Below are positions 1,746-36,512 of a stretch of DNA of 38,379 nucleotides, piece after piece (position 1 is the first letter of the stretch; each line of letters starts with the position of its first letter). Source of the stretch: Melioribacteraceae bacterium (lineage in GTDB: Bacteria; Bacteroidota; Ignavibacteria; Ignavibacteriales; Melioribacteraceae); NCBI GenBank assembly GCA_041741395.1, contig JBGSKB010000112.1, positions 1-38,379 of the forward strand, written 5' to 3'. The position numbers were made by a program, and so were the translations under genes. The notes beneath the pieces were generated by a model. That model had not been told where the DNA came from, did no database searches, and saw only the letters and a program-made list of their open reading frames with translations.

Positions 1746-1771
1746 TTCCCCAAATATTTCTTTTTTTAATT

Positions 1772-6771: not shown

Positions 6772-6779
6772 AAATACGC

Positions 6780-17000: not shown

Positions 17001-20000
17001 ATTTGTTCCTTCAAGTTTTGCAATATCACCGGCAAAATCTTCAGAAGCATTTAAAGCCATAATTTTTACTTTTGAATCTGAAAAAAGAATTCTTTCCATT
17101 TCAATAAGTATTTCTTTCATTATTATGATTTCATCAGGGTCATCAAGCACATGATAATTTGGTTTGTAATCCATTTTATTATCAATGTACTTTTGTATTG
17201 TAGGCTTGCCAAATCTATTTATAACAGTATTAAAATCTAAATTTTTTATCTGCGGAATTGATTTGTAAATCTGCGGTAATAAATTTTCATAAATTTTAGA
17301 AAATGCTTTGCTCTTAATAAAGCTTCCTAAATCTCTGCATTCGCCGATATTTTCATAAAACTCAATAACAGAATTTTGTGATTTATTGAGTGAATTAATT
17401 GTAACGCCGCAATCTTTTGGAAATGAATGATAGAGCGTCATTATATTGCTGATTGTGAGACTGTTTTTCTTTTGCTTTTTAATATTCTTAATAATTTCAA
17501 AATCGCTTAAGATATTTTTGATAAAATCCTTATCGGTTGGCGATGAGAAAATTTCATCTAAAATATCATCAGTTCTTTTTTCTGAATTTTCAAGTTTCGC
17601 TTTTTCGTTTTTGAAAATTTTGAAATATTTCAGAACAATTCTTAAAGCATTTTCAAATTCTTTTTTAAAAACATCATAACTTTTTTCTGAACCTTGAACA
17701 TAATCACCAATTGAAAAACGTAAAAATCCGGTTTGATATGGAATTATAGCAATACCACGTTCTTGAGCTAATCTTTTTGTAAATTTTTCTAAATCTTGAT
17801 AGAAAAATTTATCAGTTAATTTTAGGTTAAATAAATAAGATCCATCCGAAGGAAGAACTTCCACAAAATTATTATCCGGTTCATCAAGAATTTTTGAAGC
17901 AACTTCTTTAGCAATTTTTAATCTTTTTATAGATTCTGCGCCAAAATTTTTATTTACTCTAAATTTATTTATTTCGGTTACAAGATGTTTTTGATAATAA
18001 CTGAAAAACGGTTCGCCTTTATATTTGAAATCATCCGGCAAATCTAAAACATCAAGTTTATCTAAAGACGTAAGTTCATCCAATAAAAACAAATGCAGTG
18101 GACTTCCTTCAAACGGAGAAAATCTTTTTGCGGATTTTCCTTGATTTGCAATTTCTTTTTTATCGTTAAAATTTTCTATTTCATCAGTAATATATTTTTC
18201 AATTCTTGCTTTAATTTTATAACGTGAAGCTTCTTTGGGAAGTTCTCGTTCCATTCTGTCTTTAATCTTTTTTGCAAGCTGAGCTGTTTCTAAAGTATTT
18301 ACAAGAATGTAAAGTGAGTTTGTATTTCCTTTTTCAATTCCGTTTTGTTCTTTTGCAAAATCAATTACATCTTTTCTTGCCGGAGTTGCAATTAACGAAC
18401 CCAATCTGCTTCCGGTTGCACCTAAATTTTTTGTCGTTGAAAGTGAAGATACTGCGCTGATATTTCCCATTGCGGAAATATTATTCATAATATATCTGGA
18501 AATAGTTCTCCACTTTGGTTCTTTCGGGTCTTCAATTTTTACCGAATCGCTGTAAGCTTCATCTAATAATAAAGTAATTTTACTATTGTTTAAAAACTTT
18601 AAAAGTTTTATTAATGAAACATTGTTAAAATCTGTGTAACCAGAAGGATTTGATGGATCATTAATTACTATTGTTAAATTTTCACAAAATCTATCCCACA
18701 AACTTCCGGTATCATCAAATAGCTGGAAGTTATTTTTCATTCTATTTAATCTAAGAAAAAGTCTTTCAAAATCGATTCTACCGCTTTCATCTAAACCAAT
18801 TTCTAAATCAAATGGATTTATATCAAATCTATCTTCCGGAAATAAATCTTTGTATTCCCAAGATGCTTCTTGGTTAAACAAAATGTACGGCATCAAAACA
18901 CGGTCGGATAAAATATCTCTAATTATCATCTGAACATCATCTGCAACAGAAGTAATTTCTAAATTGCTTAAGTTGCTAATAAATTCTTTGATAATTTCTT
19001 TTTCACTTTCAGATTTGGTTTCGTAAGATTCTTTAATTCCAAGATCAATTAATAAATTGTAAAATCTTCCGGTGTTATCTGATTCGTTTTGAACTTTGGT
19101 AATATATTCTTTATACTTTTCTAAAAATAAGTTCAATCCAAAATTTTTGTGGAAATGATTTTTTAAAGTTCGCTGATAATTATCTGGAATAATATCAATT
19201 ATGGTTTTGCATTTGCTGATAACTTTTGGATCGAGAGATTTTAATTTTCTTTGAAGCAGATAATTTCCGTAAGTTCTAATTTGACCTCGTCCTCCGCCCT
19301 CTATAATTGTTGCAATATTTACTTGTTCAATATTTGAATAAAAATAAGATTTTGTTCTTGATTCAAACTCGGCAATTAATGCTTTGTTAATTTTTTGAAG
19401 AGATTTAGGATTTTTGCAATTTTGAACAAGAACAATAAAATCTTTTAATTTTGTAAGTGAATATTTATCTCTAATAATCTGTTTAACAAAATTGTTGAAT
19501 TTAAATAAATACAAATTCTTCAAATGATTTTCGGTTTCACCTAATTGCTCAAGTTTGAATTGCTTTAATTCTTCATTGTAATCTGCAATTTTTTGTTCAG
19601 CGCAATTTCTGAATTTCTCTAAATTTTCATCATTTACTTTATCCAAAATCAATCGGAGGTTTAATTGACTATTAGCCAAGGCCCCAAGTTTTTTTGTATG
19701 AACTTTATTTAGTGTATTTATTATTTTATTATGAAACGCAAAGACTAAAGAAGTATTTGTACTTTTTGATTCGGGTGAATCATCAACTAAAACAATTCTT
19801 GTTAAATATGGAAACCATTTTTTATTATTGAAAATATTTTTTCTCATATTTTCAATTTTAACAATGAAAATACTTGTTGTGTCCAATTCTATTTGCTTAG
19901 ATAAATCTTCCGGATTTTTAAACTCAATAACTTTTACATCATTTTTATTAAATATTTCATTGGAAAACAATTCCACAACTGTATCTGAACTTCCGCCAAC

Positions 20001-22567: not shown

Positions 22568-24049
22568 ATGAAATTTGCAGAATTTGAAGAATTATCAAAA
22601 AAATATAATGTAATTCCCGTTTATGAAATTATTACAGCAGATCTTCTTACTCCAGTTTTAGCGTACATTAAAATTAGAGAAAAAAATAAATTCTCTTTTT
22701 TGCTTGAATCCGTTGAAGGAATTGGAAGATTAGCCCGATATTCATTCATCGGAACTTCGCCAAAAGAAATTATACAATCAGAAAACAATCATATTACAAT
22801 TACAAAAAATGGAAAATCAAAAATATTAGAAATTGAGCTGTTAGATTATTTACACAATTTGGTTGAAAAATATAATCATCCGCAAATTGAGGAACTGCCC
22901 GATCTTACTGGGGGAATAGTTGGTTATTTGGGATTTGAAATAATTTCTAAAATTGAGCCGACAATTTTATTTAACCAAAATATTGCTCAAGATTTTCCCA
23001 ATTCTATTTTAGGATTGTTTGATACAATAATTGCATTTGATCATTACAAACATAGAATAATTTTAATAGCAAATGTTTTTGCCGATGAAATTCAAAATCC
23101 GAATTCAGCTTATGACGAAGCAATTTTAAGAATTTCCGAAATAAAGAAAAAAATTGTTCGGCCAATTTCTTATCAAAATAAATTTAAAGCAATTTCTGAA
23201 TTTGAAGGGAAAATTAATCTTGAAGAATTTTCATCAATAATTAAAAAAATAAAAAACAATATTTATAATGGAGACGTTTTCCAACTTGTAATTTCCGAAA
23301 GATTTCACCAAGAGTTTGAAGGCGATTTGCTCAATGTTTATCGGGCTTTGCGAATTATAAATCCATCTCCATATATGTATTTTATGGAAATTAATGAGGA
23401 CTTAACAATTATCGGAACATCGCCGGAAGATTTGCTAAAAGTAAAAGATGGAAACGCAACAATTTTGCCAATTGCAGGAACCCGAAGACGCGGTAAAACT
23501 AAAGAAGAAGATTCACAGTTAGAAGTTGAATTAATGAATGATCAAAAAGAAATTGCTGAACATACGATGCTTGTTGATCTTGCGCGAAACGATCTTGGAA
23601 GAGTTTGCGAACACAATTCGGTTTATGTTTCCGAAATGAAAAAAGTTCAAAGATTTTCTCATGTTATGCATATTGTTTCTCGTGTTGAAGGAAAATTAAG
23701 AAATAATAAAAATTGTATTGATGCTTTGAAAGCAAGTTTTCCAGCTGGAACAGTTTCCGGTGCGCCAAAAATTAGAGCAATTCAACTAATAAATGATTAC
23801 GAAAAAGTAAGACGCGGACCTTACGCCGGCTCGGTGGGATATATTGATTTTAATGGAAACTTAGATATGTGTATTGCAATTAGAACTTTTTTTGCAAATA
23901 AAAATATAATTTATTGGCAAGCCGGTGCTGGTATTGTTGCAGACAGCAAACCGGAATTAGAATTGAAAGAAATTCAAAATAAATCGGCAGTTTTAGTAAG
24001 TGCGTTAAAATTTGCAGAGGAAATTGATGAAAATATTAGTAATAGATAA
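22568..24049 (+). CDS. trpE: Anthranilate synthase component I
   Basis: FLLESVEGIGRLARYSFIG, IAGTRRRG, LVDLARNDLGRV, FPAGTVSGAPKIRA and GPYAGSVGY motifs. First gene after the attenuator. Confidence 0.95.
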   Translation: MKFAEFEELSKKYNVIPVYEIITADLLTPVLAYIKIREKNKFSFLLESVEGIGRLARYSFIGTSPKEIIQSENNHITITKNGKSKILEIELLDYLHNLVEKYNHPQIEELPDLTGGIVGYLGFEIISKIEPTILFNQNIAQDFPNSILGLFDTIIAFDHYKHRIILIANVFADEIQNPNSAYDEAILRISEIKKKIVRPISYQNKFKAISEFEGKINLEEFSSIIKKIKNNIYNGDVFQLVISERFHQEFEGDLLNVYRALRIINPSPYMYFMEINEDLTIIGTSPEDLLKVKDGNATILPIAGTRRRGKTKEEDSQLEVELMNDQKEIAEHTMLVDLARNDLGRVCEHNSVYVSEMKKVQRFSHVMHIVSRVEGKLRNNKNCIDALKASFPAGTVSGAPKIRAIQLINDYEKVRRGPYAGSVGYIDFNGNLDMCIAIRTFFANKNIIYWQAGAGIVADSKPELELKEIQNKSAVLVSALKFAEEIDENISNR

Positions 24050-24593
24050 TTACGATTCTTTTACATATAATCTTGTACAGCTTGTTGGAAAATTTACATG
24101 CGATATAAATGTTAAACGAAACGATGAAATAAATATTGATGAAATTAAAAAGTTAAATCCAGATAAAATTTTAATTTCTCCAGGTCCAGGCAGACCAGAA
24201 GATTCTAATATTTCGTTAGCTGTTATTCAAGAATTAGGAAAAACAATTCCCGTACTTGGTGTTTGTCTTTGTCACCAAGGAATAGGTTATTGTTTTGGAT
24301 CAACAATCACTAACGCTCCAAAACTTATGCATGGAAAAACATCTAAAGTTTTGCATGATGGAAAAACAATTTATAAAAACATTCCACAATATTTTGATGC
24401 GGGAAGATACCACTCACTGGTTATTGACAGATCAACACTTTCTGAAGATTTGGAAATTACTTCGTTTACAGAAGATGAAATAATTATGGGAGTTCGTCAT
24501 AAAAAATATCCAATTGAGGGAATCCAATTTCATCCAGAATCAATCTTAACTCCCGAGGGAGAAAATTTAATTAAAAATTGGTTGGAATTATGA
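24027..24593 (+). CDS. trpG: Anthranilate synthase component II (glutamine amidotransferase)
   Basis: MKILVIDNYDSFTYNLVQ, the catalytic-Cys motif PVLGVCLCHQ, and GIQFHPES. I prefer the ATG at 24027 (AGAGG upstream) over the tracked TTG at 24012. Overlaps the trpE 3' end. Confidence 0.9.
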   Translation: MKILVIDNYDSFTYNLVQLVGKFTCDINVKRNDEINIDEIKKLNPDKILISPGPGRPEDSNISLAVIQELGKTIPVLGVCLCHQGIGYCFGSTITNAPKLMHGKTSKVLHDGKTIYKNIPQYFDAGRYHSLVIDRSTLSEDLEITSFTEDEIIMGVRHKKYPIEGIQFHPESILTPEGENLIKNWLEL

Positions 24594-25609
24594 AAGAACA
24601 ATTAGAAAAAGTTATTGCCGGAGAAAGTTTAACATTTCAAGAAGCATACAATGTTATGTACTCAATAATGAGCGGAAACGAAAACAATTCTAAAATTGCA
24701 TCATTGCTTACAGCACTAAAAATAAAGGGCGAAACCTCGGAAGAAGTTGCCGGATTTGTAAAGGCAATGCGAGAAAAAGTTATAAATATTAGTTGTGAAA
24801 AAGAAAGAGTTATAGATGTTTGTGGAACCGGTGGCGACGGTTCGGGAACATTTAATATTTCTACAGCCGTTTCTTTTGTTGTAGCCGGCGCCGGGGTGAA
24901 TGTTGCAAAACATGGAAATCGTTCAATCTCAAGTAAAAGCGGAAGTTCTGATGTTTTACACGAACTTGGAGTTGATGTTCAGCTCAATCCCGAATTATCT
25001 GAAAAAGCATTAAATGAAATTGGAATTGCATTTTTGTTTGCACCGCTTTATCATCCGGCAATGAAGCATGTTGCGCCAATTAGAAAAGAGTTAGAGTTTA
25101 GATCAATCTTTAATATTCTTGGTCCGCTTACCAATCCAGCTGGAGTTAAACGTCAACTAATTGGAACTTTCAGTGATAAAACAGCACAACTTATGAGCGA
25201 AGCAATAAAATTATTGGAGATGGAAAAAGTAACATTTTTGTGTACAAATAATTCGTACGATGAAATAACTTTAACAGACTCCACAAAAGTTTATGAAGTA
25301 AATCAAGATCATTCAATGTATTACTATTCTTTAACTAATGAAAACTTTGGCTTCCCAAAAATAACTTTAGAAAATATTCAAGGTGGAAACGCAAAGGAAA
25401 ATGCAGAAATTATTTACGATATTTTTTCGAATAAAAATATCGGTCCGGCATACGATGTTGTGATTGCCAATGCAGCATTAGCTTTGAAGACTTCGGGAAT
25501 TTCGGATAATTTACTTGATTGTAAACAGATTGCTGAAGAATCAATAAAGTCTAGCGCAACATTAAATAAGTTAAATGAATTAAAAGAATTTGGTGAAAAA
25601 TACAAATGA
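24590..25609 (+). CDS. trpD: Anthranilate phosphoribosyltransferase
   Basis: CGTGGDGSGTFNISTA, NVAKHGNRSISSKSGSSDVL and NILGPLTNPA motifs. The ATG at 24590 forms an ATGA overlap with the trpG stop, so I prefer it over the tracked TTG at 24578. Confidence 0.9.
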   Translation: MKEQLEKVIAGESLTFQEAYNVMYSIMSGNENNSKIASLLTALKIKGETSEEVAGFVKAMREKVINISCEKERVIDVCGTGGDGSGTFNISTAVSFVVAGAGVNVAKHGNRSISSKSGSSDVLHELGVDVQLNPELSEKALNEIGIAFLFAPLYHPAMKHVAPIRKELEFRSIFNILGPLTNPAGVKRQLIGTFSDKTAQLMSEAIKLLEMEKVTFLCTNNSYDEITLTDSTKVYEVNQDHSMYYYSLTNENFGFPKITLENIQGGNAKENAEIIYDIFSNKNIGPAYDVVIANAALALKTSGISDNLLDCKQIAEESIKSSATLNKLNELKEFGEKYK

Positions 25610-26400
25610 CAATTCTAGATGAAATAATTTCTGTAAAAAGAGAAGAAGTAAAATATCTTAAGCAAAATTTTACTTTAAGCAGATATAAAGATTCTGAATA
25701 TTTCCAAAAAGAAAAAATGAGTTTGTTCAATTCGTTAAATAAGAAAAATAGAATATCAATAATTGCAGAAATAAAAAAAGCAAGTCCGTCAAAAGGAATA
25801 ATTCGTGAGGATTTTAATCATTTACAAATTGCAGACATTTATATGAATTGCGAAGTTGATGCAATTTCAATTCTTACTGATCAAAAATTTTTCATGGGAA
25901 ATATTTCTTACTTAAAAGATATTGCAAAAATTAAAACTGTTCCATTACTAAGAAAAGATTTTATAATTGATGAATATCAAATCTATGAAGCTAAATCGAA
26001 CGGAGCAGATGCAATATTATTGATTGCAGAAGTTTTGTCAAAAAATCAAATTGCTGAATTGACAAATGCAGCCGAAGAAATTGATTTAGAAGTTTTGTTG
26101 GAACTACATTCGGTTGAAGAAATTGAAAAAATAAAATTTTCTCTAAATAAAATAATTGGCGTAAATAATAGAGATTTGAAAACATTTAAAGTTGATTTAG
26201 AAACCACAAAAAATATTGGAAAATTAATTCCGCAAGAAAATTTATTGGTTTCGGAAAGCGGAATATCAAAAAAGCAAGATATGAATTTTATAAAATCCAT
26301 AAAAGCTAATGCTGTATTGGCTGGTGAACATTTTATGAAATCAAAAAAAATTGAAAATGATTTAAAGATGTTTAAAGAAATGTGTTATTATGAAAATTAA
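25606..26400 (+). CDS. trpC: Indole-3-glycerol phosphate synthase
   Basis: IIAEIKKASPSKGIIR, AISILTD, LLRKDFIIDEYQIYEA, GVNNRDLKTF motifs. ATGA overlap with the trpD stop. Confidence 0.9.
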   Translation: MTILDEIISVKREEVKYLKQNFTLSRYKDSEYFQKEKMSLFNSLNKKNRISIIAEIKKASPSKGIIREDFNHLQIADIYMNCEVDAISILTDQKFFMGNISYLKDIAKIKTVPLLRKDFIIDEYQIYEAKSNGADAILLIAEVLSKNQIAELTNAAEEIDLEVLLELHSVEEIEKIKFSLNKIIGVNNRDLKTFKVDLETTKNIGKLIPQENLLVSESGISKKQDMNFIKSIKANAVLAGEHFMKSKKIENDLKMFKEMCYYEN

Positions 26401-27016
26401 AATTTGTGGAATTACAAATTACGAAGACGCAAAAATAGCTTCAGATTTGGGCGCAGATGCAATTGGTTTTATTTTTTATAAAAATAGTAAACGATTTGTT
26501 TCACCTGAAAATGTAAAAAATATTGTTGATAAATTACCGCCATTTTTAACTAAAGTTGGAGTGTTTGTTAATGAAGAAGCGGATATTGTAAATCAAATTA
26601 TGAAAAGTTGTAAATTAAATATTGCACAGTTACATGGAGATGAAAATTTAGAATATATCTACAAAATAAATTATCCAATTGTAAAAGCCTTACGAGTTTC
26701 TCAGAATTATGATTACAATATTTTATCAGAGTATTCCCAACATAATATTTTGCTTGATACTTATAATGATGAAAATTTTGGTGGAACCGGAGAAAGTTTT
26801 AAGTGGGAAAATATTCCCTTCGAAATAAAACAAAAAATAATCTTAGCTGGCGGAGTTTCTGAAAATAATCTTGAAGAAATATTTAAGAAAATAAATCCTT
26901 ACGCAATTGATGTTTCGTCATCATTAGAAATATTTCCGGGGAAAAAAGATCATGAAAGACTAATAAAACTTTTTTGGAAACTAAATGAATTAAGAAAAGA
27001 AATAGAACACAGATAA
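26390..27016 (+). CDS. trpF: Phosphoribosylanthranilate isomerase
   Basis: MKIKICGIT..DA......GADAIGFIF, AQLHGDE, GGTGESF, LAGG motifs. 11-nt overlap with trpC. Confidence 0.9.
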   Translation: MKIKICGITNYEDAKIASDLGADAIGFIFYKNSKRFVSPENVKNIVDKLPPFLTKVGVFVNEEADIVNQIMKSCKLNIAQLHGDENLEYIYKINYPIVKALRVSQNYDYNILSEYSQHNILLDTYNDENFGGTGESFKWENIPFEIKQKIILAGGVSENNLEEIFKKINPYAIDVSSSLEIFPGKKDHERLIKLFWKLNELRKEIEHR

Positions 27017-27112
27017 CGCTGATTAAGCTGATTATCACTGTTAAATCCATTTTTTCTGTGTAATCTGTGTTTCATTGTCTTTAGAATTTTTAACGAATAT
27101 TGAGAAGAAAAT

Positions 27113-28324
27113 ATGTACCAATCAATTAAATATAATTATCCTAAAAAAGACGGCAAGTTTGGAGAGTATGGTGGAAAGTATGTTCCAGAAACTTTGATAT
27201 TTGCATTGGAAGAGCTTGAGCAAACTTACATCAAATTAAAATCTGATGAAAAGTTTATCAATGAGTTGGATGATTTACAAAAAAATTATAATGGCAGACC
27301 AACTCCTTTAACTTTTGCTGAAAGATTAACAAATCATTTTGGAAAAGGAAAAGTTTATTTAAAGCGAGAAGATTTATGTCATACCGGTGCGCACAAATTA
27401 AATAATGCCTTAGGACAAATATTAATTGCAAAATATCTTGGTAAAAAAAGAATAATTGCAGAAACCGGCGCTGGACAGCATGGAGTAGCAACAGCAACCG
27501 TTTGCGCAAAATTCGGATTGGAATGTTTTGTCTATATGGGTGAAGAGGATATTGAACGACAAAAATTAAATGTTTTTCGAATGAAAATGTTAGGTGCGAC
27601 GGTAATTCCGGTAAGCTCAGGAAGTAAAACTTTAAAAGATGCAACGAACGAAGCAATTAGAGATTGGATTGCAAATGTAGAAAACACTCATTACATTATT
27701 GGTTCAGTTGTTGGACCTCATCCTTACCCAATGCTGGTAAGAGATTTTCAATCAATTATTGGAAAAGAAACAAAGCTGCAAATAATGGAAAGAGAAAATA
27801 AATTACCAAATTATGTTTTAGCGTGTGTTGGGGGCGGATCAAATGCGATGGGAATATTTCATGAATTTATTGAGGATGAAAACACTAAATTAATTGGAAT
27901 TGAAGCTGGCGGTTATGGAATTAATTCAAATTTACATTGTGCAACTTTAACTTTGGGAACTGAAGGAATATTTCACGGAATGAAAACTTATTTGTTACAG
28001 AATGAGTTTGGACAAATATCGCCGGTTCATTCAATTTCTGCTGGATTGGATTATCCGGGAGTTGGTCCGGAGCATAGTTTTCTAAAAGATGAAAAGCGAG
28101 TTCAGTATTTTTCAATCACCGATGAAGAAGCATTATCGGCAACAATAAAAGTTTCAGAATTTGAGGGAATTTTACCGGCATTAGAAACAGCCCATGCCTT
28201 TGCGTATTTAGAATATTTGATGCCGCAAACCAAAAAAGATGAAATAATTATTGTAAACGTAAGCGGCAGAGGTGATAAAGATTTAAATACAATTATTGAT
28301 AAACTTGGTGCTAAAATATTATGA
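27113..28324 (+). CDS. trpB: Tryptophan synthase beta chain
   Basis: [33 protein letters not shown] (PLP lysine), [20 protein letters not shown] motifs. Confidence 0.95.
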
Positions 28325-29109
28325 GCAAAATTAGAGAAAAAATAGTTGAGGTAAATAACAGAAACGAGAAAGCTTTAACAATATTCCTAACTGCTGGTTT
28401 TCCGAGTGTGGGAAAATTTGTTGAATTAGCTTTGAAGATTGAACAAGCTGGAGCTGATATTCTTGAAATAGGATTACCATTTGGTGATTCGCTTGCCGAT
28501 GGTCCGGTAATTCAATCATCTTACACAGTTGCATTAAAAAACAATGTTAATTTGTTAACGACTTTTGAATTAGTTTCTGAATTAAGAAAACAATCGCAAA
28601 TTCCAATTGTGATTATGAGTTCAAGCAATCCCGTATTGGCTTTTGGTAAAAAGAAATTTGTACAAAATTGCCAAGATACAAAAGTTGATGGAATAATTAT
28701 TCCCGATATTCCGCTTGAAGAATATGATGATTTCTATAAAAATGATTTTATTGGAATTGATAAAATTTTACTAACAACACCAACTTCAAGTGAAAAGAGA
28801 ATTTCTACGATTGATGAAAAAAGTTCCGGATTTGTCTATTGTGTTAGTGTTGTGGGAACTACCGGAGTTCGTGAAAAATTTGATGATTATGTGTTGAGAA
28901 ATTTAGAGAGAACTTATTCAATTGTTAAAAACAACAAAATGCAAATTGGCTTTGGGATTTCTACACCAGAAGATATAAAAAAATTCTCTCCTTTTTGTGA
29001 TGGTGTAATTGTCGGAAGTGCGATCGTGAAATCGTTAGCAAACGATGATGATAAATTTTCAAAAACAATTGAGTTGGTGAAAGAGTTAAAAAGAGCAACA
29101 AAAAGTTAA
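28321..29109 (+). CDS. trpA: Tryptophan synthase alpha chain
   Basis: [33 protein letters not shown] motifs. ATGA overlap with the trpB stop. Confidence 0.9.
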
Positions 29110-29206
29110 AAATGAAAATTAAAAAAGTTAAGAAGCAAAAACTTTTGCCACTAATGCACGAATTAAAAATCTTTTTCTTCTTAACTTCAAAACGCTTTAT
29201 ACGTTT

Positions 29207-30238
29207 CTACTTTTCAACAAATTCCAACCAAATTGATTTTGTAATTTCTTTGGCAAGGAAAATACTTTTTCCTTTTTCAAAAATTTTATTTAAAAAGGTT
29301 TTATCGAAATTATCATTTATAATTTTTAACAAATCAGATTTTGAATCAACTGAAATTGTAATTCCGGAAATTTCATATTTATTCGATTCAATCAAAACTA
29401 TTTTAAAATTAGCATTTTTAAACTCGACAATTTTTCCAGTAAAATTTGGAATATAATAATTTCCAATTGGCTCAAATCCAATATCTACAAGCTCACGAGC
29501 GGTTATTTTAATGTTTTTTGTTTCAAACCAAACCGAAGAAATTCCTTTTGTATTGTTAATGTGATTAGTTTTTGAATTATTCAGTTTATCAAATTGAATA
29601 AAGAAAATCGGTAATTCAGAATTTATTCCTTTTGCAGAAAGAGTTGAATAATCATTACCTTTTTGTAATTCAACAAAATTTGAATTAATTACAGAAAAAT
29701 TATTTTTAAGGTTTTCAATTTCATTTACTCGCAAAGCAAATTGCAGTCCAAATTTATTTTGCGAAATAATTTTTTCATATTCTTTTGTAAAATTTTCTGT
29801 TGGATTATTTACTTCAACAAGCTCAATTTCTGTATTATCATTAAACTCAATAAAATTATTTCTAATACCGTTTTTGTGAACTTTTCCTTCCTTAATTGAA
29901 AATCCCAATTTTTTAAAAAGCACAGAAATTTCATTTAAATTTTCCGAGCCAATAATTACATGATCTAAAAAAGAATTTTTAATTGACGAATATATATTGT
30001 TGTGAATAATTATTGAATCATTGGTGAGTATTTTTTTTTGTTTATTAAGAAATTCTATACTCTGAGTTAAACTATCGGCAGTTTCATCAAGTTTAATTTT
30101 TTCGGATTTAATTTTATCAGTTTCTGAAATATGTTCTTTTTTTGATTCTTTAACATTTTGCTCATTGCTGCATTTGACAACAAGAAAAATAAATATTAAT
30201 AGAAAAGTTAGTTTTTTAAGTTGAATTATTAATTTCAT
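29207..30238 (-). CDS. Exported (possibly lipid-anchored) protein with a glyoxalase-like / VOC-type domain
   Basis: Signal peptide MKLIIQLKKLTFLLIFIFLVVKC with a Cys at the end of the hydrophobic region. LDHVIIGSENLNEISVLFKKLGFSIKEGKVHKNGIRNNFIEFNDNTEIELVEV resembles the glyoxalase-like domain pattern (DH...G..H..G..N....F.D.TYLEL). Confidence 0.55.
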   Translation of the reverse strand: MKLIIQLKKLTFLLIFIFLVVKCSNEQNVKESKKEHISETDKIKSEKIKLDETADSLTQSIEFLNKQKKILTNDSIIIHNNIYSSIKNSFLDHVIIGSENLNEISVLFKKLGFSIKEGKVHKNGIRNNFIEFNDNTEIELVEVNNPTENFTKEYEKIISQNKFGLQFALRVNEIENLKNNFSVINSNFVELQKGNDYSTLSAKGINSELPIFFIQFDKLNNSKTNHINNTKGISSVWFETKNIKITARELVDIGFEPIGNYYIPNFTGKIVEFKNANFKIVLIESNKYEISGITISVDSKSDLLKIINDNFDKTFLNKIFEKGKSIFLAKEITKSIWLEFVEK

Positions 30239-30464: not shown

Positions 30465-31514
30465 ATGATAAAAAAATATAGTTATATTCTAATTCTTCTT
30501 GTACTTCTAGCAATTATTTTATTTGCCATTCCCATAAATGTTACAACAAGTGTAACATCAAAGGGTAAATTATTACCATCCAAAGTTTGGATAATTTCTA
30601 AAGGTTTGGAAGGGTTACTTTATACAACTTTGGTTGATAATGTTAACGGTGTAAATGAGGAATATTCGATTACGCAATTTGCCCGTGGAGATTTAATAAA
30701 GTTTTCTCTGAGTAAAAATATTAAACCGGGTAAAAATGTTTTTATTAATGATACAATTGGGATTGTTTACTCAAGTTTAAACGAACAAGAAATTGCTGAA
30801 TTAAAAGGTGAATTGGAAGCCGCAAAAGCATCTCTACAAATTGGAATAAGTGGAGAAAAAGAATCAATTATTGAACTTGAAAATAGAAATTTAGCTTACT
30901 CAAAAAAACAAGTTGAGGAACAAACTAAGTTTTTTGAACGACAGAAAAAATTATTTGAAAAACAATTAATTACACAAGATGAATTTGAAACCGAATATGC
31001 AAAACTAGAATTGTACAAAATAAATATCAGCATTGCCGAAGAAAGATTGAGATCAGTTTTAACCGGAACAAAAAGAGAGGAAATTCAGTTAATTAATTCT
31101 CAAATAAAATCACTGGAGAATCAAATTTCGGTGCTTCAAGAAAAATCAAATAATTTCCTTTTAAAATCACCTATTAACGGAATAATTTCTGAATCTTACA
31201 ATCAAGATACATTGTTAATTATCAACAGCGAAAATAAATTTACTGTTTTGATTCCGATTAAATTGAATATGGCTAACTCTTTTAACATTGGAAATGAAGT
31301 TGAAATAATTCCGCGAAAAGGAAATTCAATTGTTGCTAAAATTGAATCAATTGATAAATCAGTAAAAATATATTTTGAAGAACATTTCATAATTGCTAAA
31401 ACTGTTTTTGAAAGTTCTTCGGATATATTTTATTCCAACGAAATTGTTGAATGCAAAATATACGGCAGCAAGGTTAGTTTATTGGATTATATTATATTTT
31501 ATCTAAATAAATAG
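30465..31514 (+). CDS. HlyD-family membrane-fusion-like protein
   Basis: N-terminal TM anchor, a barrel-sandwich segment (GDLIKFSLSKNIKPGKNVFINDTIGIVY), a long coiled-coil (ELKGELEAAKASLQ...EERLRSVLTGTKREEIQLINSQIKSLENQISVLQEK), then LKSPINGIISE. This is the typical HlyD/MFP order. No transporter partner gene is adjacent. Confidence 0.6.
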   Translation: MIKKYSYILILLVLLAIILFAIPINVTTSVTSKGKLLPSKVWIISKGLEGLLYTTLVDNVNGVNEEYSITQFARGDLIKFSLSKNIKPGKNVFINDTIGIVYSSLNEQEIAELKGELEAAKASLQIGISGEKESIIELENRNLAYSKKQVEEQTKFFERQKKLFEKQLITQDEFETEYAKLELYKINISIAEERLRSVLTGTKREEIQLINSQIKSLENQISVLQEKSNNFLLKSPINGIISESYNQDTLLIINSENKFTVLIPIKLNMANSFNIGNEVEIIPRKGNSIVAKIESIDKSVKIYFEEHFIIAKTVFESSSDIFYSNEIVECKIYGSKVSLLDYIIFYLNK

Positions 31515-31516
31515 TT

Positions 31517-32308
31517 ATGAGATTAGAATATAAATTTTTAGTTAGAAATGAACTTTTGGATAGTTTAAGAAAAAAGATTCTTCCATTTGTTGAGCTGGAT
31601 AAATTTGTAAAAGAAAATAATGGTAATGAATATACAGTAAGAAGCATTTACTTTGACACTTCTAATTTCGATTATTATCATGAAAAGATTAATGGAATTA
31701 AAATCAGAAAAAAATTGCGAATAAGAAGTTACGATACAAAAGCAGATGACAATTTAGTTTTTTTAGAAATAAAAAATAAGTACGATAATTTTATTGGTAA
31801 AAATAGATCGCCAGTTTTATTCCATAATTTAAAAAATTTACTAAACACAAATGAAATTGAAACTTACGCATTAACAAATAACGGTTATGCAAATTCAATA
31901 AATGATGGCGAAAAGTTTTTGCATCACATTTATAGAAGTGGATTGAAACCAACTATTTTAATTGTGTATGAGCGCGAGGCTTTTTTGTCAAAGTTTGATA
32001 ACGGCTTAAGAATTACTTTTGATAAAAGTATTAGATTTTATGATAACCCCAATATTGATAGTCTTTATAGAGATGATGATTTAGAAATTGCTTCGCCAAA
32101 CCATTTTGTATTAGAACTTAAATTTAGTAACGGTTACCCAAAATGGCTTCAGGATATTGTACAAGAGTTTGGTTTAATTAGAAGGTCAATTTCTAAATAT
32201 ACAATTTGTATTGATTCATCTAAAAGAATTAACCCAATGCGGAAGAATTTAAGTACATCAAATTACTCATTATTTTATGATCAGAATGTTGAAGAAGGAA
32301 TTTTTTAG
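31517..32308 (+). CDS. VTC-domain protein (polyphosphate polymerase-like, triphosphate-tunnel/CYTH fold)
   Basis: MRLEYKFLV..., YTVRSIYFDTSNFDYYHEKINGIKIRKKLRIRSY, VFLEIKNK, ILIVYEREAF, LRITFDKSIRF: alternating charged beta-strand motifs typical of bacterial VTC-domain proteins. Starts 2 nt after the HlyD-like stop. Confidence 0.75.
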   Translation: MRLEYKFLVRNELLDSLRKKILPFVELDKFVKENNGNEYTVRSIYFDTSNFDYYHEKINGIKIRKKLRIRSYDTKADDNLVFLEIKNKYDNFIGKNRSPVLFHNLKNLLNTNEIETYALTNNGYANSINDGEKFLHHIYRSGLKPTILIVYEREAFLSKFDNGLRITFDKSIRFYDNPNIDSLYRDDDLEIASPNHFVLELKFSNGYPKWLQDIVQEFGLIRRSISKYTICIDSSKRINPMRKNLSTSNYSLFYDQNVEEGIF

Positions 32309-32310
32309 AA

Positions 32311-32985
32311 ATGCTGCAAGATATTAATAATATTTTTAATGTTGGAATTACTCCGAAAGAAATGCTTTTAAATTTATTAGTTGGTTTATTAGCTGGAATT
32401 ATTATTTCAGTCTTTTATCGTAAATCGTATAATGGTCCCGGTTATCAAGCTTCATTTGTAAATTCACTGATTTTATTGGTTATAATTACATCAATTGTAA
32501 TTATGGTAATTGGAAATAATTTGGCCCGTGCATTTGGCTTGGTTGGCGCAATGTCAATTATCAGATTTAGAACGGCTGTAAAAGAAACCCAAGATATTAT
32601 ATATATTTTCTTTTCGCTTGCAATAGGTATGGCAGTTGGTGTTGGTCAACATGGGTTTGCTATTTTTAGTGCTGTATTTATTGGAATTATTACTTTAGTT
32701 CTTTCAAAATCGAAATTTTCAACTCCAATAAAAAGTGATCTTCTTCTTCAATTTACATTTAATTCAAACGGCAATGATTCTTCATCTTACAACAAATTAA
32801 TTGATGAATACTGCAAAAAAAGTAAATTGATAAATGCAAAAGCCGTTGGTACAGAAGAAACACTTGAACTTTCTTATTATGTCGGATTTAAAAGTAAAGA
32901 TTATACAACAGAGTTTGTCCAAAAATTAAGGAAAGTTAAAGGCGTTTTAAATGTTAATCTTTTCTATGATGAAGAATATTTTTAG
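32311..32985 (+). CDS. DUF4956-family integral membrane protein
   Basis: Four hydrophobic helices and the signature AFGLVGAMSIIRFRTAVKETQDIIYIFFSLAIGMAVGVG, plus a ~85-aa soluble tail. Starts 2 nt after the VTC gene. Confidence 0.7.
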   Translation: MLQDINNIFNVGITPKEMLLNLLVGLLAGIIISVFYRKSYNGPGYQASFVNSLILLVIITSIVIMVIGNNLARAFGLVGAMSIIRFRTAVKETQDIIYIFFSLAIGMAVGVGQHGFAIFSAVFIGIITLVLSKSKFSTPIKSDLLLQFTFNSNGNDSSSYNKLIDEYCKKSKLINAKAVGTEETLELSYYVGFKSKDYTTEFVQKLRKVKGVLNVNLFYDEEYF

Positions 32986-33052
32986 TTCATTTCCCTTTCT
33001 ATAAGATCAAAATCTTATTAAATTATTTTATCAATCACAAAAAGGAATAGTC

Positions 33053-35392
33053 ATGAAAAACAATTTACTCATGTCTCTATTCATATTAATTTCTATTTCA
33101 ACTTTTACATTCTCACAAAATGATGAAAGCTGGAAAGTGTATGACGATACTGAAGTTGCAATTTATAATATAACAATGGATGAAAATGATTTGCAATTTA
33201 TGTTTGAAAATCCTCAAAGCGATTCCATGCACCTTGCTTCAATAAAAATTAAAAATGCCATTTTAGATGAAACAATAGATTCAGTGGGAATTAGAATTAG
33301 AGGAAATACTTCCAGAGAATCAAACAAAAAATCACTTAAACTTTCTTTTAACACTTTTAAAAAGGGAAGAAAATTTTACTCTTTAGAAAAAATAAATTTG
33401 AATGGTGAACATAATGATCCATCAATTATAAGAAGCAAATTAAGCTGGGATTTTTTTAACGATATTAAGGTTAAGTCAAGTAGAGCAGCTCACGCGGCAG
33501 TTTATATTAATGAAAAATATTTTGGATTGTATGTTTCCATTGAACATATTGATGAAAATTTTTTATCAAAAAATTTTGATGATGACACCGGAAATTTATG
33601 GAAATGTTTATATGGTTCGGATCTAAAATATATCAATAATAATCCCAACACTTATAAAATGTCTTCCGGCGAGCATAGAGTCTACGATCTTATCACAAAT
33701 AATACTCAAGATGACTATTCAAAACTTGCAGAGTTAATTGATTTAATAAATAATTCAGATGATGAAACTTTTAAAACACAACTTCCTCTAAAACTAAATT
33801 TGCTCGGAACTTTGCAATATTTTGCAATAAACATATTAACCGGAGGCTGGGATGATTATTGGTTTCTGACAAATAATTATTATTTATATCACCAACCTTC
33901 AACAGATCAATTTAATTTAATACCTTATGATTATGATAACACTTTTGGGATTGATTTTTTCAATATTGATTGGGCTTCCGTAAATCCTTATGTTTTTGCT
34001 AAAATCAATAATGGTCCCAGACCTTTAATTACAAGGCTTTTGAAAGCGCCGGAATTTAGGAATTTATTTACACACTTAATTAAATTCTATAAAGAAAAAT
34101 ATACCCAAACATCTATGTGGATAAGCCATATCGATGAATTAAAAAATAAAATAACCGCTTTTGCAATTGAAGATACTTTTAGAGTTAAGGATTATGGTTT
34201 TTCAATTGAAGATTTTAACAACTCCTATTTTGCAGATGGTTTTTCAAAAGATCCGGCAAAATATTCTTTAAAAGATTTTATTAATAAAAGAAATTCAACT
34301 CTGGAAAATCAGCTTAATTTTGTTGATGCAAACCCAATTATTTATGATATAAATATTACTGCAAATTATTTTGAAGCTTTTGATACTATTTATGTTAACT
34401 GCTCGGTTTTTAGCAGCAATGGAATTAAAAAGGTAAAGGCGGAATTACTTAATACTAAAACCGATGAAACTTATTTTTATGAAATGCAATTCAATCCAAA
34501 TCTAAGTTCGCTTGATATAAAAGAAAATGATTTGTGGAAGGGGAAAATATTTAATATACCAAATAGTTTTAGCGGAGAACTAAAAATTGTTGTAGAAGAC
34601 AGCAGTGGAAAAATAATCAGCTACCCGAGCAAAGCCATTAAAATCAATACCCCAGGTGATGTTACTCAAGAAGTATTGCTAAGTGAATTGATGAGTTCAA
34701 ACTCGACAACAATACAAGATAATTTTTCAGAATATGATGATTGGCTTGAAATTTATAATTCCCAAGATACATCTGTAAATTTAAGTGGAAAATATCTTAC
34801 GGATAAAATTGATAATCTCACAAAATGGCAATTCCCAGAGAACTTTGTTATTCAACCAAATCAACATATTTTAATTTGGTGTGATGAAGACTCAAGTCAA
34901 GGAATAAATCATGCAAACTTCAAATTAAGTGCTGATGGAGAATTTGTAGCAATTGTAAATAATGATGGAGTCACAATTATTGATTCGGTAACACTACCAA
35001 AATTAAATGTAAATGAATCTTATGCAAGACAAAATAATTCTGGTGATTGGTCTGTGACAAATTCACCAACACCTGGGGAAGATAATCTTATTGTGAGTAT
35101 AAATAATCAAAAAAATGATAAATATTTTTTAAAATTAAATGCTTATCCAAATCCGTTTAATCCATCAACAAAAATAGAATATAGGATACCAAATTCAGAA
35201 AGACTAAACAACTTTACAATTAAAATCTACGATATTCTTGGAAGGGAAATAACGACCCTATTAAACGAAAAACAAAAGCCTGGAGATTATATTATTGAAT
35301 GGAATGCAATTAATCAAACGAGTGGAGTTTATATTATTCATTTATATTCAGAATCATTCACAAAAACTTTAAAATTATTGTTAATTCGTTAA
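33053..35392 (+). CDS. Secreted CotH-family kinase-like protein with lamin-tail domain and T9SS C-terminal sorting domain
   Basis: Signal peptide. CotH motifs: VGIRIRGNTSRESNKKSLKLSF, INLNGEHNDPSIIRSKLSWDFF, VYINEKYFGLYVSIEHIDENFL, GGWDDYWFLTNNYYLYH, LIPYDYDNTFG. LTD-like segment: LLSELMSSNS...YDDWLEIYNSQDTSVNLSGKYLTD...ILIWCDED..HANFKLSADGEFVAI. C-terminal AYPNPFNPSTKIEYRIP...GVYIIHLYSESFTKTLKLLLIR. Confidence 0.8.
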   Translation: MKNNLLMSLFILISISTFTFSQNDESWKVYDDTEVAIYNITMDENDLQFMFENPQSDSMHLASIKIKNAILDETIDSVGIRIRGNTSRESNKKSLKLSFNTFKKGRKFYSLEKINLNGEHNDPSIIRSKLSWDFFNDIKVKSSRAAHAAVYINEKYFGLYVSIEHIDENFLSKNFDDDTGNLWKCLYGSDLKYINNNPNTYKMSSGEHRVYDLITNNTQDDYSKLAELIDLINNSDDETFKTQLPLKLNLLGTLQYFAINILTGGWDDYWFLTNNYYLYHQPSTDQFNLIPYDYDNTFGIDFFNIDWASVNPYVFAKINNGPRPLITRLLKAPEFRNLFTHLIKFYKEKYTQTSMWISHIDELKNKITAFAIEDTFRVKDYGFSIEDFNNSYFADGFSKDPAKYSLKDFINKRNSTLENQLNFVDANPIIYDINITANYFEAFDTIYVNCSVFSSNGIKKVKAELLNTKTDETYFYEMQFNPNLSSLDIKENDLWKGKIFNIPNSFSGELKIVVEDSSGKIISYPSKAIKINTPGDVTQEVLLSELMSSNSTTIQDNFSEYDDWLEIYNSQDTSVNLSGKYLTDKIDNLTKWQFPENFVIQPNQHILIWCDEDSSQGINHANFKLSADGEFVAIVNNDGVTIIDSVTLPKLNVNESYARQNNSGDWSVTNSPTPGEDNLIVSINNQKNDKYFLKLNAYPNPFNPSTKIEYRIPNSERLNNFTIKIYDILGREITTLLNEKQKPGDYIIEWNAINQTSGVYIIHLYSESFTKTLKLLLIR

Positions 35393-35454
35393 TAAAAAGT
35401 TTCATTATTCGATTATAAAATTGTAAAAGGAAAACATTTTTATTTGGAGTAATA

Positions 35455-36279
35455 ATGTCTAAGAAGAAAAAAGAAAAATCTAATGAGCAAAAAGAATCTC
35501 AAAACGAGTTTTCAAAAAAATTTTACGAGAAAGAATTAGAGAGACTTCAGATAGAACTTGTGAAATTACAAGAGTGGGTAAAAGAAACAAAATTAAAAGT
35601 AGTTATAATATTTGAAGGACGTGATGCTGCCGGAAAAGGTGGTGTAATTAAAAGAATTACACAAAGTCTTAATCCAAGAATTTGCAGAGTTGTTGCTTTA
35701 GGAACGCCTACAGAAAGAGAGAAAACCCAATGGTATTTTCAAAGATATGTACCACATTTACCAGCTGCCGGGGAAATAGTTTTATTTGATAGAAGCTGGT
35801 ACAACCGAGCTGGTGTTGAAAAAGTTATGGAATTTTGTACAGAAGAAGAACATAAAGAATTTTTAAGATCTTGTCCCGAATTTGAAAGAATGCTGGTTCG
35901 ATCAGGAATAATTTTAATTAAATATTATTTTTCTGTTAGTGATGAAGTACAAGAAAAAAGATTTCAGGATAGAATTCAAGATAGAACCAAACGATGGAAA
36001 TTAAGCCCCATGGATTTGGAATCTCGTTCTAAATGGGTTGAATATTCAAAAGCAAAAGATGAAATGTTTTCGCACACTGATATTAAACAAGCACCGTGGA
36101 ATGTTGTAAATGCGGATGATAAAAAGAAAGCCAGATTAAATTGCATAAGTCATTTACTTAGTTTAATTGACTATAGAGATTTAACACCGGAACCGATAAA
36201 ACTCCCAGCCAGACAAAAGGACAAAGGTTACGTTAGACCACCTATTTCTGATCAAACTTTTGTTCCAGCAAAATATTGA
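35455..36279 (+). CDS. ppk2: Polyphosphate kinase 2 (single-domain PPK2)
   Basis: VVIIFEGRDAAGKGGVIKRITQSLNPR (Walker A), TQWYFQRYVPHLPAAGEIVLFDRSWYNRAGVEKVMEF, KRWKLSPMDLESR. GGAG lies 6 nt upstream of the ATG. 62 nt downstream of the CotH gene on the same strand. Confidence 0.9.
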   Translation: MSKKKKEKSNEQKESQNEFSKKFYEKELERLQIELVKLQEWVKETKLKVVIIFEGRDAAGKGGVIKRITQSLNPRICRVVALGTPTEREKTQWYFQRYVPHLPAAGEIVLFDRSWYNRAGVEKVMEFCTEEEHKEFLRSCPEFERMLVRSGIILIKYYFSVSDEVQEKRFQDRIQDRTKRWKLSPMDLESRSKWVEYSKAKDEMFSHTDIKQAPWNVVNADDKKKARLNCISHLLSLIDYRDLTPEPIKLPARQKDKGYVRPPISDQTFVPAKY

Positions 36280-36512
36280 ATCAAAAAAAAATCACAATAA
36301 TGCTAAGTTTGCTCATGTAGTTAGAAGAAATTAAAGTTAAATGTGCAGAAGTAAAATTATTGCACATAATGCTTTACTTGGCAAATATGATTTTACGTCT
36401 ATTCCTTATAAGGAATTTACAGATCTTATTGTAGGTATTTAATTTAGATTTTATTTGGTTGAATTTCGAATTATTTTTAAAACTAAATAACATCAAAAAA
36501 TAGAGGAATACT

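Follow-up and report, generated by a model that had tools for sequence, protein, structure and literature searches.

An adaptor–VTC–DUF4956 gene module as a candidate route for polyphosphate export in diderm bacteria

Polyphosphate in bacteria is usually ascribed to PPK1 and PPK2 and regarded as a cytoplasmic store, and we know of no explanation as yet for the route by which it reaches the bacterial surface or the medium. Could such a route be encoded in a locus of the Melioribacteraceae bacterium analysed here, and which of its genes would belong to it? The window, that is, the whole stretch of DNA analysed, comprises 38,379 nt of contig JBGSKB010000112.1. An earlier note, made from the letters alone, had read five adjacent genes in it as one polyphosphate-linked envelope system, in which VTC and DUF4956 proteins would make and export the polymer, a HlyD-type adaptor might guide it across the periplasm, an exported CotH kinase would use it, and PPK2 would balance the cytoplasmic pools.

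Table 1. Genes of the locus, with positions counted from the first letter of the window.
Feature	Position	Strand	Length	Basis	Standing
Membrane-anchored periplasmic adaptor (membrane fusion protein, HlyD/MacA/EmrA-like)	30465-31514	+	349 aa	Structure model and Foldseek	Core
VTC-domain protein, predicted polyphosphate polymerase	31517-32308	+	263 aa	Pfam PF09359	Core
DUF4956 inner-membrane protein	32311-32985	+	224 aa	Pfam PF16316	Core
Exported CotH-family atypical kinase	33053-35392	+	779 aa	Pfam PF08757	Accessory
Single-domain PPK2	35455-36279	+	274 aa	PF03976, TIGR03707	Clade-specific neighbour

The ORF list agrees with the earlier note on the five same-strand genes (Table 1) and on their gaps of 2, 2, 67 and 62 nt in the order adaptor, VTC, DUF4956, CotH and PPK2, while Pfam and NCBIfam scans support its domain assignments for the last four. 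A hairpin 3′ of PPK2 (~36340-36366) scored no better than shuffled sequence (z -1.6). The locus is flanked in the window by the trp operon and by genes for a glyoxalase-like protein and a prolyl oligopeptidase, and its host, a member of the FCB group, is diderm and non-sporulating. A role in anti-phage defence was rejected, as PADLOC returned zero matches for the five proteins.

Gene neighbourhoods were surveyed in 80 species-level genomes with this VTC subfamily, in which linkage was scored within 10 kb, and in metagenomes with the adaptor as anchor, where 39 loci were informative. The VTC subfamily occurs in no fewer than 481 species-level genomes; for the adaptor subfamily, 545 cluster representatives were counted at E ≤ 1e-30. 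The pairing of VTC with DUF4956 proposed in the earlier note proved near-universal: DUF4956 lies within 10 kb of VTC in 76 of the 80 genome loci and immediately 3′ of it in nearly all loci, usually with a gap of a few nt. The adaptor is encoded immediately 5′ of VTC in 67/80 genome loci, and gaps within the module are mostly -95 to +45 nt across these loci. VTC adjoins the 3′ side of the adaptor, and is followed by DUF4956, in all 39 informative metagenome loci. The adaptor, which the note had treated as a possible guide only, is hence a dedicated core component and not an optional one. CotH is found within 10 kb of VTC in 31 loci and is absent in 49, and PPK2 is linked in 6 (L008-L013, the closest Ignavibacteriales/Melioribacteraceae relatives) and absent in 74; PPK2 is also linked in one metagenome contig (1/46 loci, L090). 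Clustering of adaptor, VTC and DUF4956 is far above chance, while that of CotH is weaker and that of PPK2 is clade-restricted. The expected co-occurrence therefore held for the first three genes and failed for CotH and PPK2 as constant members, so that a conserved five-gene operon was rejected. The conserved unit consists of three genes, adaptor, VTC and DUF4956, whose identities to the window proteins co-vary (Spearman 0.71). Genes for PhoU, a Na/Pi cotransporter, PHO4 and alkaline phosphatase are present in some of the neighbourhoods.

The VTC protein is soluble and consists of the VTC domain alone (PF09359, 159.4 bits against a cut-off of 23, E 1.4e-46, residues 2-234), with neither an SPX nor a TM domain. 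Its solved-structure relatives are Vtc2/3/4 only, and the family profile matches the catalytic domain of yeast Vtc4 (3g3q) at E 1.6e-12. Residues K6, R68, R70, K86 and E200 align to Vtc4 K200, R264, R266, K281 and E426, with all five unchanged across 25 homologues and in Gram-positive ones at 26-33% identity. A catalytic role of Vtc4 K200 and K281 is said to have been described by Hothorn and co-workers in 2009. The Vtc4 R264A/R266A/E426N mutant complex has been termed catalytically impaired (PMC9911596). The tunnel residues, on which the earlier note had made its reading depend, are therefore kept, and the protein is a predicted polyphosphate polymerase that looks functional. Its N-terminus reads E-x-K (R2, E4, K6), compared with T-T-K in Vtc4. 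Like the eukaryotic VTC complex (Vtc4 plus the Vtc1/2/3 channel; 3g3q, 7ytj, 8i6v), the bacterial pair combines a tunnel domain bearing these five residues with a cytoplasmic polymerase set directly against a membrane partner. It differs in that the bacterial VTC lacks the SPX sensor and the fused C-terminal three-helix TM domain, and in that DUF4956, the partner, is encoded as a protein of its own and bears no relation to the three-helix Vtc1-type channel. The proposed destination also differs, being the envelope or exterior rather than the vacuole, with a periplasmic adaptor added.

The product of the first gene has no Pfam match at E ≤ 0.01, and its NCBIfam matches remain below cut-off (CzcB 6e-11, HlyD 1e-9; 15-42 bits against cut-offs of 95-450). 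Its homologues show only weak hairpin-domain matches (PF25881 and PF25893). The HlyD-type identity suggested earlier was nevertheless upheld by an AlphaFold model (pLDDT 81), which has the membrane anchor (TM helix 2-21), lipoyl/beta domains and long alpha-hairpin (~104-229) of the adaptor fold, and by Foldseek matches to MacA (E 7e-15), then MacAB-TolC, EmrA, AcrA and MexA. A single RLS/RLT-type motif, R159-x3-L163-x6-T170, lies at the predicted hairpin tip and follows the RxxxLxxxxxxS/T TolC-binding motif as defined in PMC3391258; across 98 unique homologues, it is conserved at R (97/98), L (91/98) and S/T (87/98). On this model, the first gene encodes a periplasmic adaptor with putative TolC docking through the motif. 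The adaptor is absent in 7/7 Anaerolineae loci compared with 6/73 others (Fisher p 5e-7), and also from the Gram-positive (plasmid) loci examined. A 308-aa gene 5′ of VTC in a Planococcus plasmid was rejected as an adaptor analogue, since its only match, to AP_endonuc_2, is sub-threshold and denotes a xylose isomerase-like TIM-barrel.

In its fold, its TM anchor (as in MacA/EmrA/HlyD) and the position of its motif, the protein resembles efflux and type I secretion adaptors. Such systems differ from the window, where domain scans found no ABC, RND or MFS transporter gene and no outer-membrane factor gene such as TolC, in agreement with the missing pump remarked on earlier. No recurrent ABC/RND/MFS pump or TolC-type gene was seen among the neighbours of the 80 loci either, and a linked pump or TolC was thus rejected. 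With a recurrent pump missing, DUF4956/VTC is left as the sole candidate for an inner-membrane partner of the adaptor, and since DUF4956 and the cytoplasmic polymerase are the only linked inner-membrane parts, any export would be synthase-coupled and not pump-driven.

DUF4956 itself was assigned by PF16316 (58.5 bits against a cut-off of 30.6, E 8.8e-16). Membership in the MgtC family (PF02308) is unsupported at 19.7 bits, below the cut-off of 31.4, but the architecture is alike. The model (pLDDT 73) has MgtC-like helices at ~15-133 and an ACT-like beta-alpha-beta-beta-alpha-beta domain at 144-219, for which Foldseek gave weak ACT-domain matches only. The order of a small helical membrane domain and then a cytoplasmic ACT-like domain is that of the MgtC/SapB/YhiD family, from which DUF4956 is set apart by its sub-threshold score, its own invariant RFRTAxK and its obligate linkage to VTC. 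The full stretch, G76-x-VGA-x-SI-x-RFRTA-x-K91-x3-D95, shows no variation across 30 homologues or in Gram-positive ones of 30% identity. By analogy, we predict that DUF4956 is the membrane partner or translocon of VTC.

MgtC proteins are discussed as regulators (PMC12345266), and DUF4956, with its weak MgtC match and ACT-like C-terminal domain, could accordingly be an MgtC-like anchor or regulator that senses a ligand and controls VTC. Synthesis would then be membrane-tethered and intracellular, the polyphosphate would stay in the cytoplasm, where PPK2 could use it, and the adaptor and CotH would serve another envelope role, linked to the synthesis by co-regulation alone, for example under phosphate stress. 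The phosphate genes in some neighbourhoods fit this account, as does the position of PPK2, a cytoplasmic polyphosphate user, immediately 3′ of DUF4956 without an intervening CotH in two relatives (L010 and L013), although PPK2 is linked in so few loci. It leaves unexplained why the adaptor subfamily is confined to the VTC neighbourhood and keeps a TolC-docking motif, why the adaptor is lost exactly where the outer membrane is missing, and why linkage to an exported CotH recurs. We therefore consider purely intracellular synthesis unlikely.

The same three genes could also form a new tripartite efflux or secretion pump with a cargo other than polyphosphate, in which VTC would be a triphosphate/NTP hydrolase motor, DUF4956 an inner-membrane conduit and the adaptor the connection to TolC. 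Candidates for the cargo would be a cation, some small molecule or a factor required by CotH. PMC4641920 describes tunnel hydrolases, cyclases and polymerases as having one catalytic core in common, so that residue conservation in VTC alone leaves the reaction unfixed. Adaptors of efflux and type I secretion have the fold and RLS motif seen here, and the E-x-K terminus departs from that of Vtc4. However, its Pfam score and its solved relatives place the protein in the VTC family and not in CYTH, the polyanion-friendly invariant R/K motif of DUF4956 suits polyphosphate, and to our knowledge no tunnel enzyme energises transport. A pump of this kind seems to us quite improbable.

The fourth gene encodes a CotH-family protein (PF08757, 203 bits, E 1e-59, residues 80-416) that aligns with B. 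cereus CotH (5jd9) at E 3.7e-27. Its D267 and D293 correspond by alignment to the catalytic D228 and metal-binding D251 of B. subtilis CotH, mutants of which are inactive (PMC7821199), and of 44 VTC-linked CotH proteins, 42 and 43, respectively, keep the equivalent residues. The catalytic-residue check proposed earlier thus found both aspartates in place, and the kinase domain looks functional. Export, too, is borne out by a hydrophobic, signal-like N-terminus (MKNNLLMSLFILISISTFTFSQ, read directly off the ORF translation), a lamin-tail domain (LTD, residues 539-647) and a T9SS type-A sorting domain at 698-774 (TIGR04183, 37.2 bits against 23; PF18962, 33 against 27). The kinase domain and both aspartates are shared with Bacillus spore-coat CotH, whereas export by Sec and T9SS, the LTD and sorting domain, and a non-sporulating host are not.

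Beyond the three-gene module itself, CotH alone recurs as a neighbour, and no other extra gene comes close to its frequency. CotH lies immediately 3′ of DUF4956 in 16 loci (16/43 same-strand genes there, by Pfam), is the first upstream neighbour in 7 and the second downstream gene in 5, and is paired directly with VTC in two Bacteroidales loci. A CotH-anchored plasmid search for nearby VTC gave four matches, all weak. CotH is a frequent exported accessory outside the core, while PPK2 (PF03976, E 1.2e-106; TIGR03707 equivalog, 387.1 bits against 301.8) is a local, clade-specific addition. Both could be independent of the module and adjacent through local gene-order history; CotH would then be a kinase or adhesin of the surface, drawing on environmental ATP or acting before export. 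Their absence from many loci is consistent with this, as are the 67- and 62-nt gaps, which could hold separate promoters, and the changed copy number and fragmentation of CotH in the closest relative. Full independence is nonetheless hard to credit: CotH is the commonest extra neighbour, recurs beside VTC-DUF4956 in unrelated Gram-positive loci and pairs with VTC itself in the Bacteroidales, and no terminator-like sites were found on the + strand between the five genes.

Part of this combination is already known. A CotH/polyphosphate polymerase/DUF4956 set lies beside Gram-positive pelDEADAFG operons (Whitfield et al., bioRxiv 10.1101/768473), as SIR_1592-1594 in Streptococcus intermedius (PMC12345266), and the same triad occurs in NELoc-2 of C. 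perfringens (PMC2879425). The window has the same three families in tight synteny, with CotH likewise predicted to be secreted, but differs in its lack of any pel or glycosyltransferase genes, in its upstream adaptor, T9SS-sorted CotH and PPK2, and in its FCB diderm host. The triad was not found outside Pel loci by the S. intermedius authors (PMC12345266); it is present beyond them, since this window and further genome, metagenome and Gram-positive loci carry it. Deletion of the DUF4956 and CotH homologues in S. intermedius reduced Pel-dependent aggregation, while deletion of the VTC homologue caused no aggregation defect (PMC12345266), which makes a strictly linear pathway from VTC through DUF4956 to CotH doubtful or points to redundancy. 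The earlier statement that the function of the combination was undetermined thus needs amending for the known triad and its deletion phenotypes, and stands in that its polyphosphate role is still one that we infer. In our literature search, no paper found named DUF4956 with VTC, or CotH with extracellular polyphosphate, and none reported the adaptor-containing diderm form of the module.

The reading that we prefer, with a rough probability of 0.45, is that adaptor, VTC and DUF4956 carry out synthase-coupled polyphosphate export via the adaptor and a TolC-type channel from outside the locus, CotH being a frequent exported accessory. The three-gene module probably makes polyphosphate and moves it out across the envelope. 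The kept Vtc4 residues suggest that the VTC enzyme would synthesise the polymer on the inner side of the membrane, with nucleoside triphosphate as its substrate. DUF4956, probably oligomeric, would pick up the chain through the basic, invariant RFRTAxK segment and, by analogy with yeast VTC, move it across the inner membrane. The adaptor would form a tube through the periplasm and, with its hairpin tip, dock onto a TolC-type outer-membrane channel whose gene lies elsewhere, as the adaptor's fold, RLS motif and absence in lineages without an outer membrane suggest, and the polymer would thereby reach the cell surface or medium. The T9SS-exported CotH, an optional partner, may work on the polyphosphate once exported, or together with it, for example by taking it as a phosphoryl donor where ATP is lacking or by phosphorylating surface proteins or polysaccharides. 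In this clade, PPK2 would link the cytoplasmic polyphosphate and nucleotide pools.

We infer these biochemical steps of synthesis, export and use by CotH from gene content, conserved gene order, predicted folds and conserved residues. Export is supported by the gene order and lineage pattern, the VTC residues, the adaptor fold and RLS motif, the invariant basic motif of DUF4956, the co-varying identities, and a CotH that recurs and, in the window, is exported. It is weakened by the resemblance of DUF4956 to MgtC, a regulator and not a channel, and by the moderate pLDDT of its model, by a TolC-type gene linked neither in the window nor among recurrent neighbours, by the lack of CotH in ~60% of loci and of PPK2 in >90%, and by the finding of no VTC-DUF4956 (Rosetta-stone) fusion among the best 120 matches of either family. 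CotH kinases, moreover, are known to use ATP, and we know of no polyphosphate-dependent CotH. More speculative, and on balance somewhat unlikely, is the idea that the module is a dedicated envelope-spanning polyphosphate secretion system and a tripartite exporter of a new class, made up of a tunnel polymerase, an MgtC-like translocon, the adaptor and TolC, whose polymer would feed secreted CotH kinases as an extracellular phosphoryl or energy currency or would be an anionic matrix component.

The module is a concrete, widespread and testable candidate for polyphosphate export, a route not yet shown in bacteria, and it suggests a phosphoryl-donor supply for exported CotH kinases working without ATP. 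For the CotH genes linked to Pel in streptococci and clostridia, the question of the donor arises equally. If the export reading is true, it could account for surface protein and polysaccharide phosphorylation without ATP and for the source of bacterial extracellular polyphosphate, and the synthase-plus-channel logic of eukaryotic VTC would have a bacterial counterpart with different membrane parts.

The five genes lie on the + strand, separated by gaps of 2, 2, 67 and 62 nt, and the coordinates and gaps claimed in the earlier note agree exactly with the ORF list. No + strand terminator-like site was found between the five genes. Four of the five labels (VTC, DUF4956, CotH and PPK2) were borne out by profile scans, and the DUF4956 protein also has a sub-threshold match to MgtC. 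Pfam gave no match for the first ORF and its NCBIfam adaptor matches are sub-threshold, so its label as an adaptor was put to a separate test. None of the five proteins matched the PADLOC anti-phage defence models. The window has a G+C content of ~29% and is most closely related to metagenome-assembled genomes of Ignavibacteriales/Melioribacteraceae. Judging from its predicted genes, the region at 414-8390 may be an extracellular electron-transfer cluster of this Ignavibacteriota genome, and the 114-aa ORF is probably not a gene.

Features of the window, in order of position
Feature	Position	Strand	Remarks
Fe-S/flavin oxidoreductase	414-1745		first gene of the 414-8390 region
Multihaem cytochrome, MtrC/MtrF-like domains	1772-3322		large; follows the Fe-S/flavin oxidoreductase
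Multihaem cytochrome, MtrC/MtrF-like domains	3301-6771		1156 aa
ORF, no Pfam match	6780-8390		536 aa
T9SS cargo, second in the window	9293-11557	-	754 aa; sorting domain, no other recognisable domain
ORF	14028-20666	-	2212 aa; sole Pfam match a partial aminotransferase class I/II segment (residues 664-808)
trp operon	22568-29109		5' flank of the five genes; unrelated
ORF	29112-29456	+	114 aa; low-complexity, lysine/phenylalanine-rich; overlaps the glyoxalase-like gene
Glyoxalase-like gene	29207-30238		5' flank, divergent; opposite strand to the 29112-29456 ORF; unrelated
Adaptor (HlyD-like)	30465-31514	+	349 aa
VTC	31517-32308	+	263 aa; VTC profile E 1.4e-46
DUF4956	32311-32985	+	224 aa; DUF4956 58.5 bits, above cut-off
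CotH	33053-35392	+	779 aa; CotH E 1e-59, then lamin-tail and T9SS type-A sorting domains (profile scans)
PPK2	35455-36279	+	274 aa; PPK2 family, TIGR03707 equivalog, 387 bits (cut-off 301.8)
Prolyl oligopeptidase gene			3' flank of the five genes; unrelated

The AlphaFold model of the first protein, built on 32 homologues (pLDDT 81), comprises an N-terminal TM helix, beta domains and an alpha-hairpin of ~60 residues per arm. Its Foldseek matches are to MacA (7e-15), MacAB-TolC, EmrA, AcrA and MexA, and predicted fold and matches thus bear out a HlyD-type periplasmic adaptor. A single RxxxLxxxxxxS/T motif (R159, L163, T170) falls precisely on the predicted tip of the hairpin, and among 98 unique homologues the R is kept in 97, the L in 91 and the S/T in 87. 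This is the RLS/RLT motif, through which MacA, AcrA and HlyD have been shown to bind the tip of TolC (PMC3391258).

The VTC subfamily is present in at least 481 species-level genomes (one genome scanned per species), and neighbourhoods were counted in the best 80 of its loci, scored with profiles built for this analysis. DUF4956 was found within 10 kb of VTC in 76 of the 80 loci, in nearly all cases as the adjacent gene, only a few nt away, and the adaptor gene is immediately 5' of VTC in 67. The reverse search, a metagenome scan anchored on the adaptor, returned 46 loci, 39 of them with enough downstream sequence to judge; VTC is the next gene in all 39 (gap -32 to +19 nt), and DUF4956 follows wherever the contig runs on. 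The adaptor subfamily has 545 cluster representatives at E ≤ 1e-30, with a uniform length of ~350 aa. These counts exclude chance co-location of the three genes, which co-occur as a unit. The adaptor is missing from all seven Anaerolineae loci as against six of the other 73 (Fisher p 5e-7), Chloroflexota being regarded as without a classical outer membrane, and none was found in the Gram-positive plasmid loci. From the counts and this lineage pattern, the conserved unit is adaptor-VTC-DUF4956 in diderms and VTC-DUF4956 in lineages without an outer membrane; hosts of the adaptor-bearing module belong to the diderm FCB group and related lineages. The lack of a pump gene in the window also recurs, as neither an ABC, RND or MFS pump nor an outer-membrane factor was recurrent among the neighbours of the 80 loci.

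The view of the five genes as one system holds for these three and not for the other two. CotH is a frequent accessory, found within 10 kb of VTC in 31 of the 80 loci; in a Pfam scan of flanking genes it accounts for 16 of the 43 same-strand genes directly 3' of DUF4956, and it is directly 5' of the adaptor in seven loci and the second downstream gene in five. PPK2 is a clade-specific accessory, present among the 80 loci only in the six closest relatives (L008-L013), two of which carry it directly 3' of DUF4956 with no CotH between.

Several loci vary this arrangement or add to it. In the closest relative (GCA_020635285.1, 90% identical; L001/L008, 4677-16277), the stretch from the glyoxalase gene to the adaptor additionally contains an LTD protein and a beta-helix-bearing CotH of 1130 aa, and pieces of fragmented CotH precede PPK2; the number of CotH copies thus shifts even from one close relative to another. 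Two Bacteroidales MAGs (L049, 7696-10768; L062, 7558-10768) carry CotH-LTD immediately 5' of VTC with neither DUF4956 nor adaptor within 10 kb, a variant pairing kinase and polymerase only, and L049 continues with a LytTR two-component pair. The Calditrichia loci L005-L007 (~8282-12219 in L005) have further phosphate-related neighbours, namely a separate CYTH-domain protein two genes 5' of VTC and an SdiA-regulated/phytase-like protein directly 3' of DUF4956.

Vtc2/3/4 were the sole matches of the VTC family profile among solved structures (3g3q, E 1.6e-12). Residues K6, R68, R70, K86 and E200 align with K200, R264, R266, K281 and E426 of the yeast polymerase subunit Vtc4, so that the basic and glutamate tunnel residues are kept; all five are invariant among 25 aligned homologues, and also in Gram-positive homologues of 26-33% identity. 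A Vtc4 R264A/R266A/E426N complex has been described as catalytically impaired (PMC9911596). No SPX or TM domain was found in the window VTC protein. DUF4956 is the most conserved core protein (median identity to the window proteins 53%; VTC 48%, adaptor 34%), and its segment G76-x-VGA-x-SI-x-RFRTA-x-K-x3-D95 stays invariant in homologues as distant as 30% overall identity. Its model (pLDDT 73) has five helical segments (residues 15-133) and a beta-alpha-beta-beta-alpha-beta C-terminal domain with weak Foldseek matches, all to ACT domains, in agreement with the description of the S. intermedius homologue as MgtC plus ACT (PMC12345266). A tail of acidic and aromatic residues, DEEYF, closes the protein almost invariantly (32971-32982; alignment A5), and the C-terminus of VTC in the closest relatives reads EEGIF (32291-32305; alignment A1); both tails could be docking peptides.

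The best-supported reading, to which we assign a probability of about 0.45, is polyphosphate export coupled to its synthase. VTC would polymerise phosphate from NTP at the membrane, DUF4956 would carry the chain across the inner membrane, and the adaptor would bridge to a TolC-type channel encoded elsewhere. An envelope-crossing rather than purely cytoplasmic function is suggested because the adaptor is exclusive to VTC, has a predicted TolC-docking motif and was lost from lineages that have no outer membrane, and because no other inner-membrane partner is linked. Against export, TolC gene linkage is absent, and in S. intermedius deletion of VTC gave no aggregation phenotype whereas deletions of DUF4956 and CotH did. 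MgtC-like proteins, moreover, are regulators and not channels, which favours membrane-tethered but intracellular synthesis regulated by DUF4956; the same three properties of the adaptor make this alternative unlikely. A new tripartite pump with the tunnel enzyme as hydrolytic motor for a different cargo is less probable still.

If polyphosphate is exported, CotH is a candidate recipient. The window protein aligns with B. cereus CotH (E 3.7e-27), and its D267 and D293 are equivalent to D228 and D251 of B. subtilis, residues whose mutants are inactive (PMC7821199). The catalytic aspartates are thus conserved in the window, and likewise in 42 (D267) and 43 (D293) of 44 VTC-linked CotH proteins. 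Predicted export by T9SS would place the kinase where ATP is absent. CotH is also the sole recurrent extra neighbour of the module, in diderms and Gram-positives alike; we give little credence to CotH and PPK2 being functionally independent of the core. The simplest link would be that CotH consumes or alters the exported polyphosphate, or draws on it to phosphorylate surface substrates. A polyphosphate secretion system that supplies extracellular CotH kinases is possible, if doubtful.

The triad of CotH, polyphosphate polymerase and DUF4956 has been noted beside Gram-positive Pel operons as an accessory set (bioRxiv 10.1101/768473) and partly tested by genetics in S. intermedius, by authors who reported no triad outside Pel loci (PMC12345266). 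It occurs widely outside them, in the window, the 80 genome loci and plasmid loci. Exopolysaccharide loci surround the triad in C. perfringens NELoc-2 and on Gram-positive plasmids; their settings include Pel, a chitin-synthase-like GT2 accompanied by a HEAT-repeat protein, and clusters of GT2 and GT4 genes, which makes a polysaccharide or matrix target plausible. Two plasmid loci, from Planococcus maritimus (NZ_CP059541.1; L134, 4470-12824) and Pseudobutyrivibrio (pNP95; L135, 3956-9760), show by their neighbours that such embedding extends to non-Pel loci: in one, the genes 3' of VTC-DUF4956-CotH encode an uncharacterised 689-aa protein, a HEAT-repeat protein and a chitin-synthase-like GT2, which is the order of NELoc-2, and in the other the triad lies between GT2 and GT4 genes. 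In the literature searched, we found no paper linking DUF4956 with VTC by name, and no description of the adaptor-VTC-DUF4956 module. The five-gene system is best re-drawn as a three-gene core with two accessories, and what is new here is a dedicated TolC-type adaptor joined to a bacterial VTC module that was already known, if uncharacterised.
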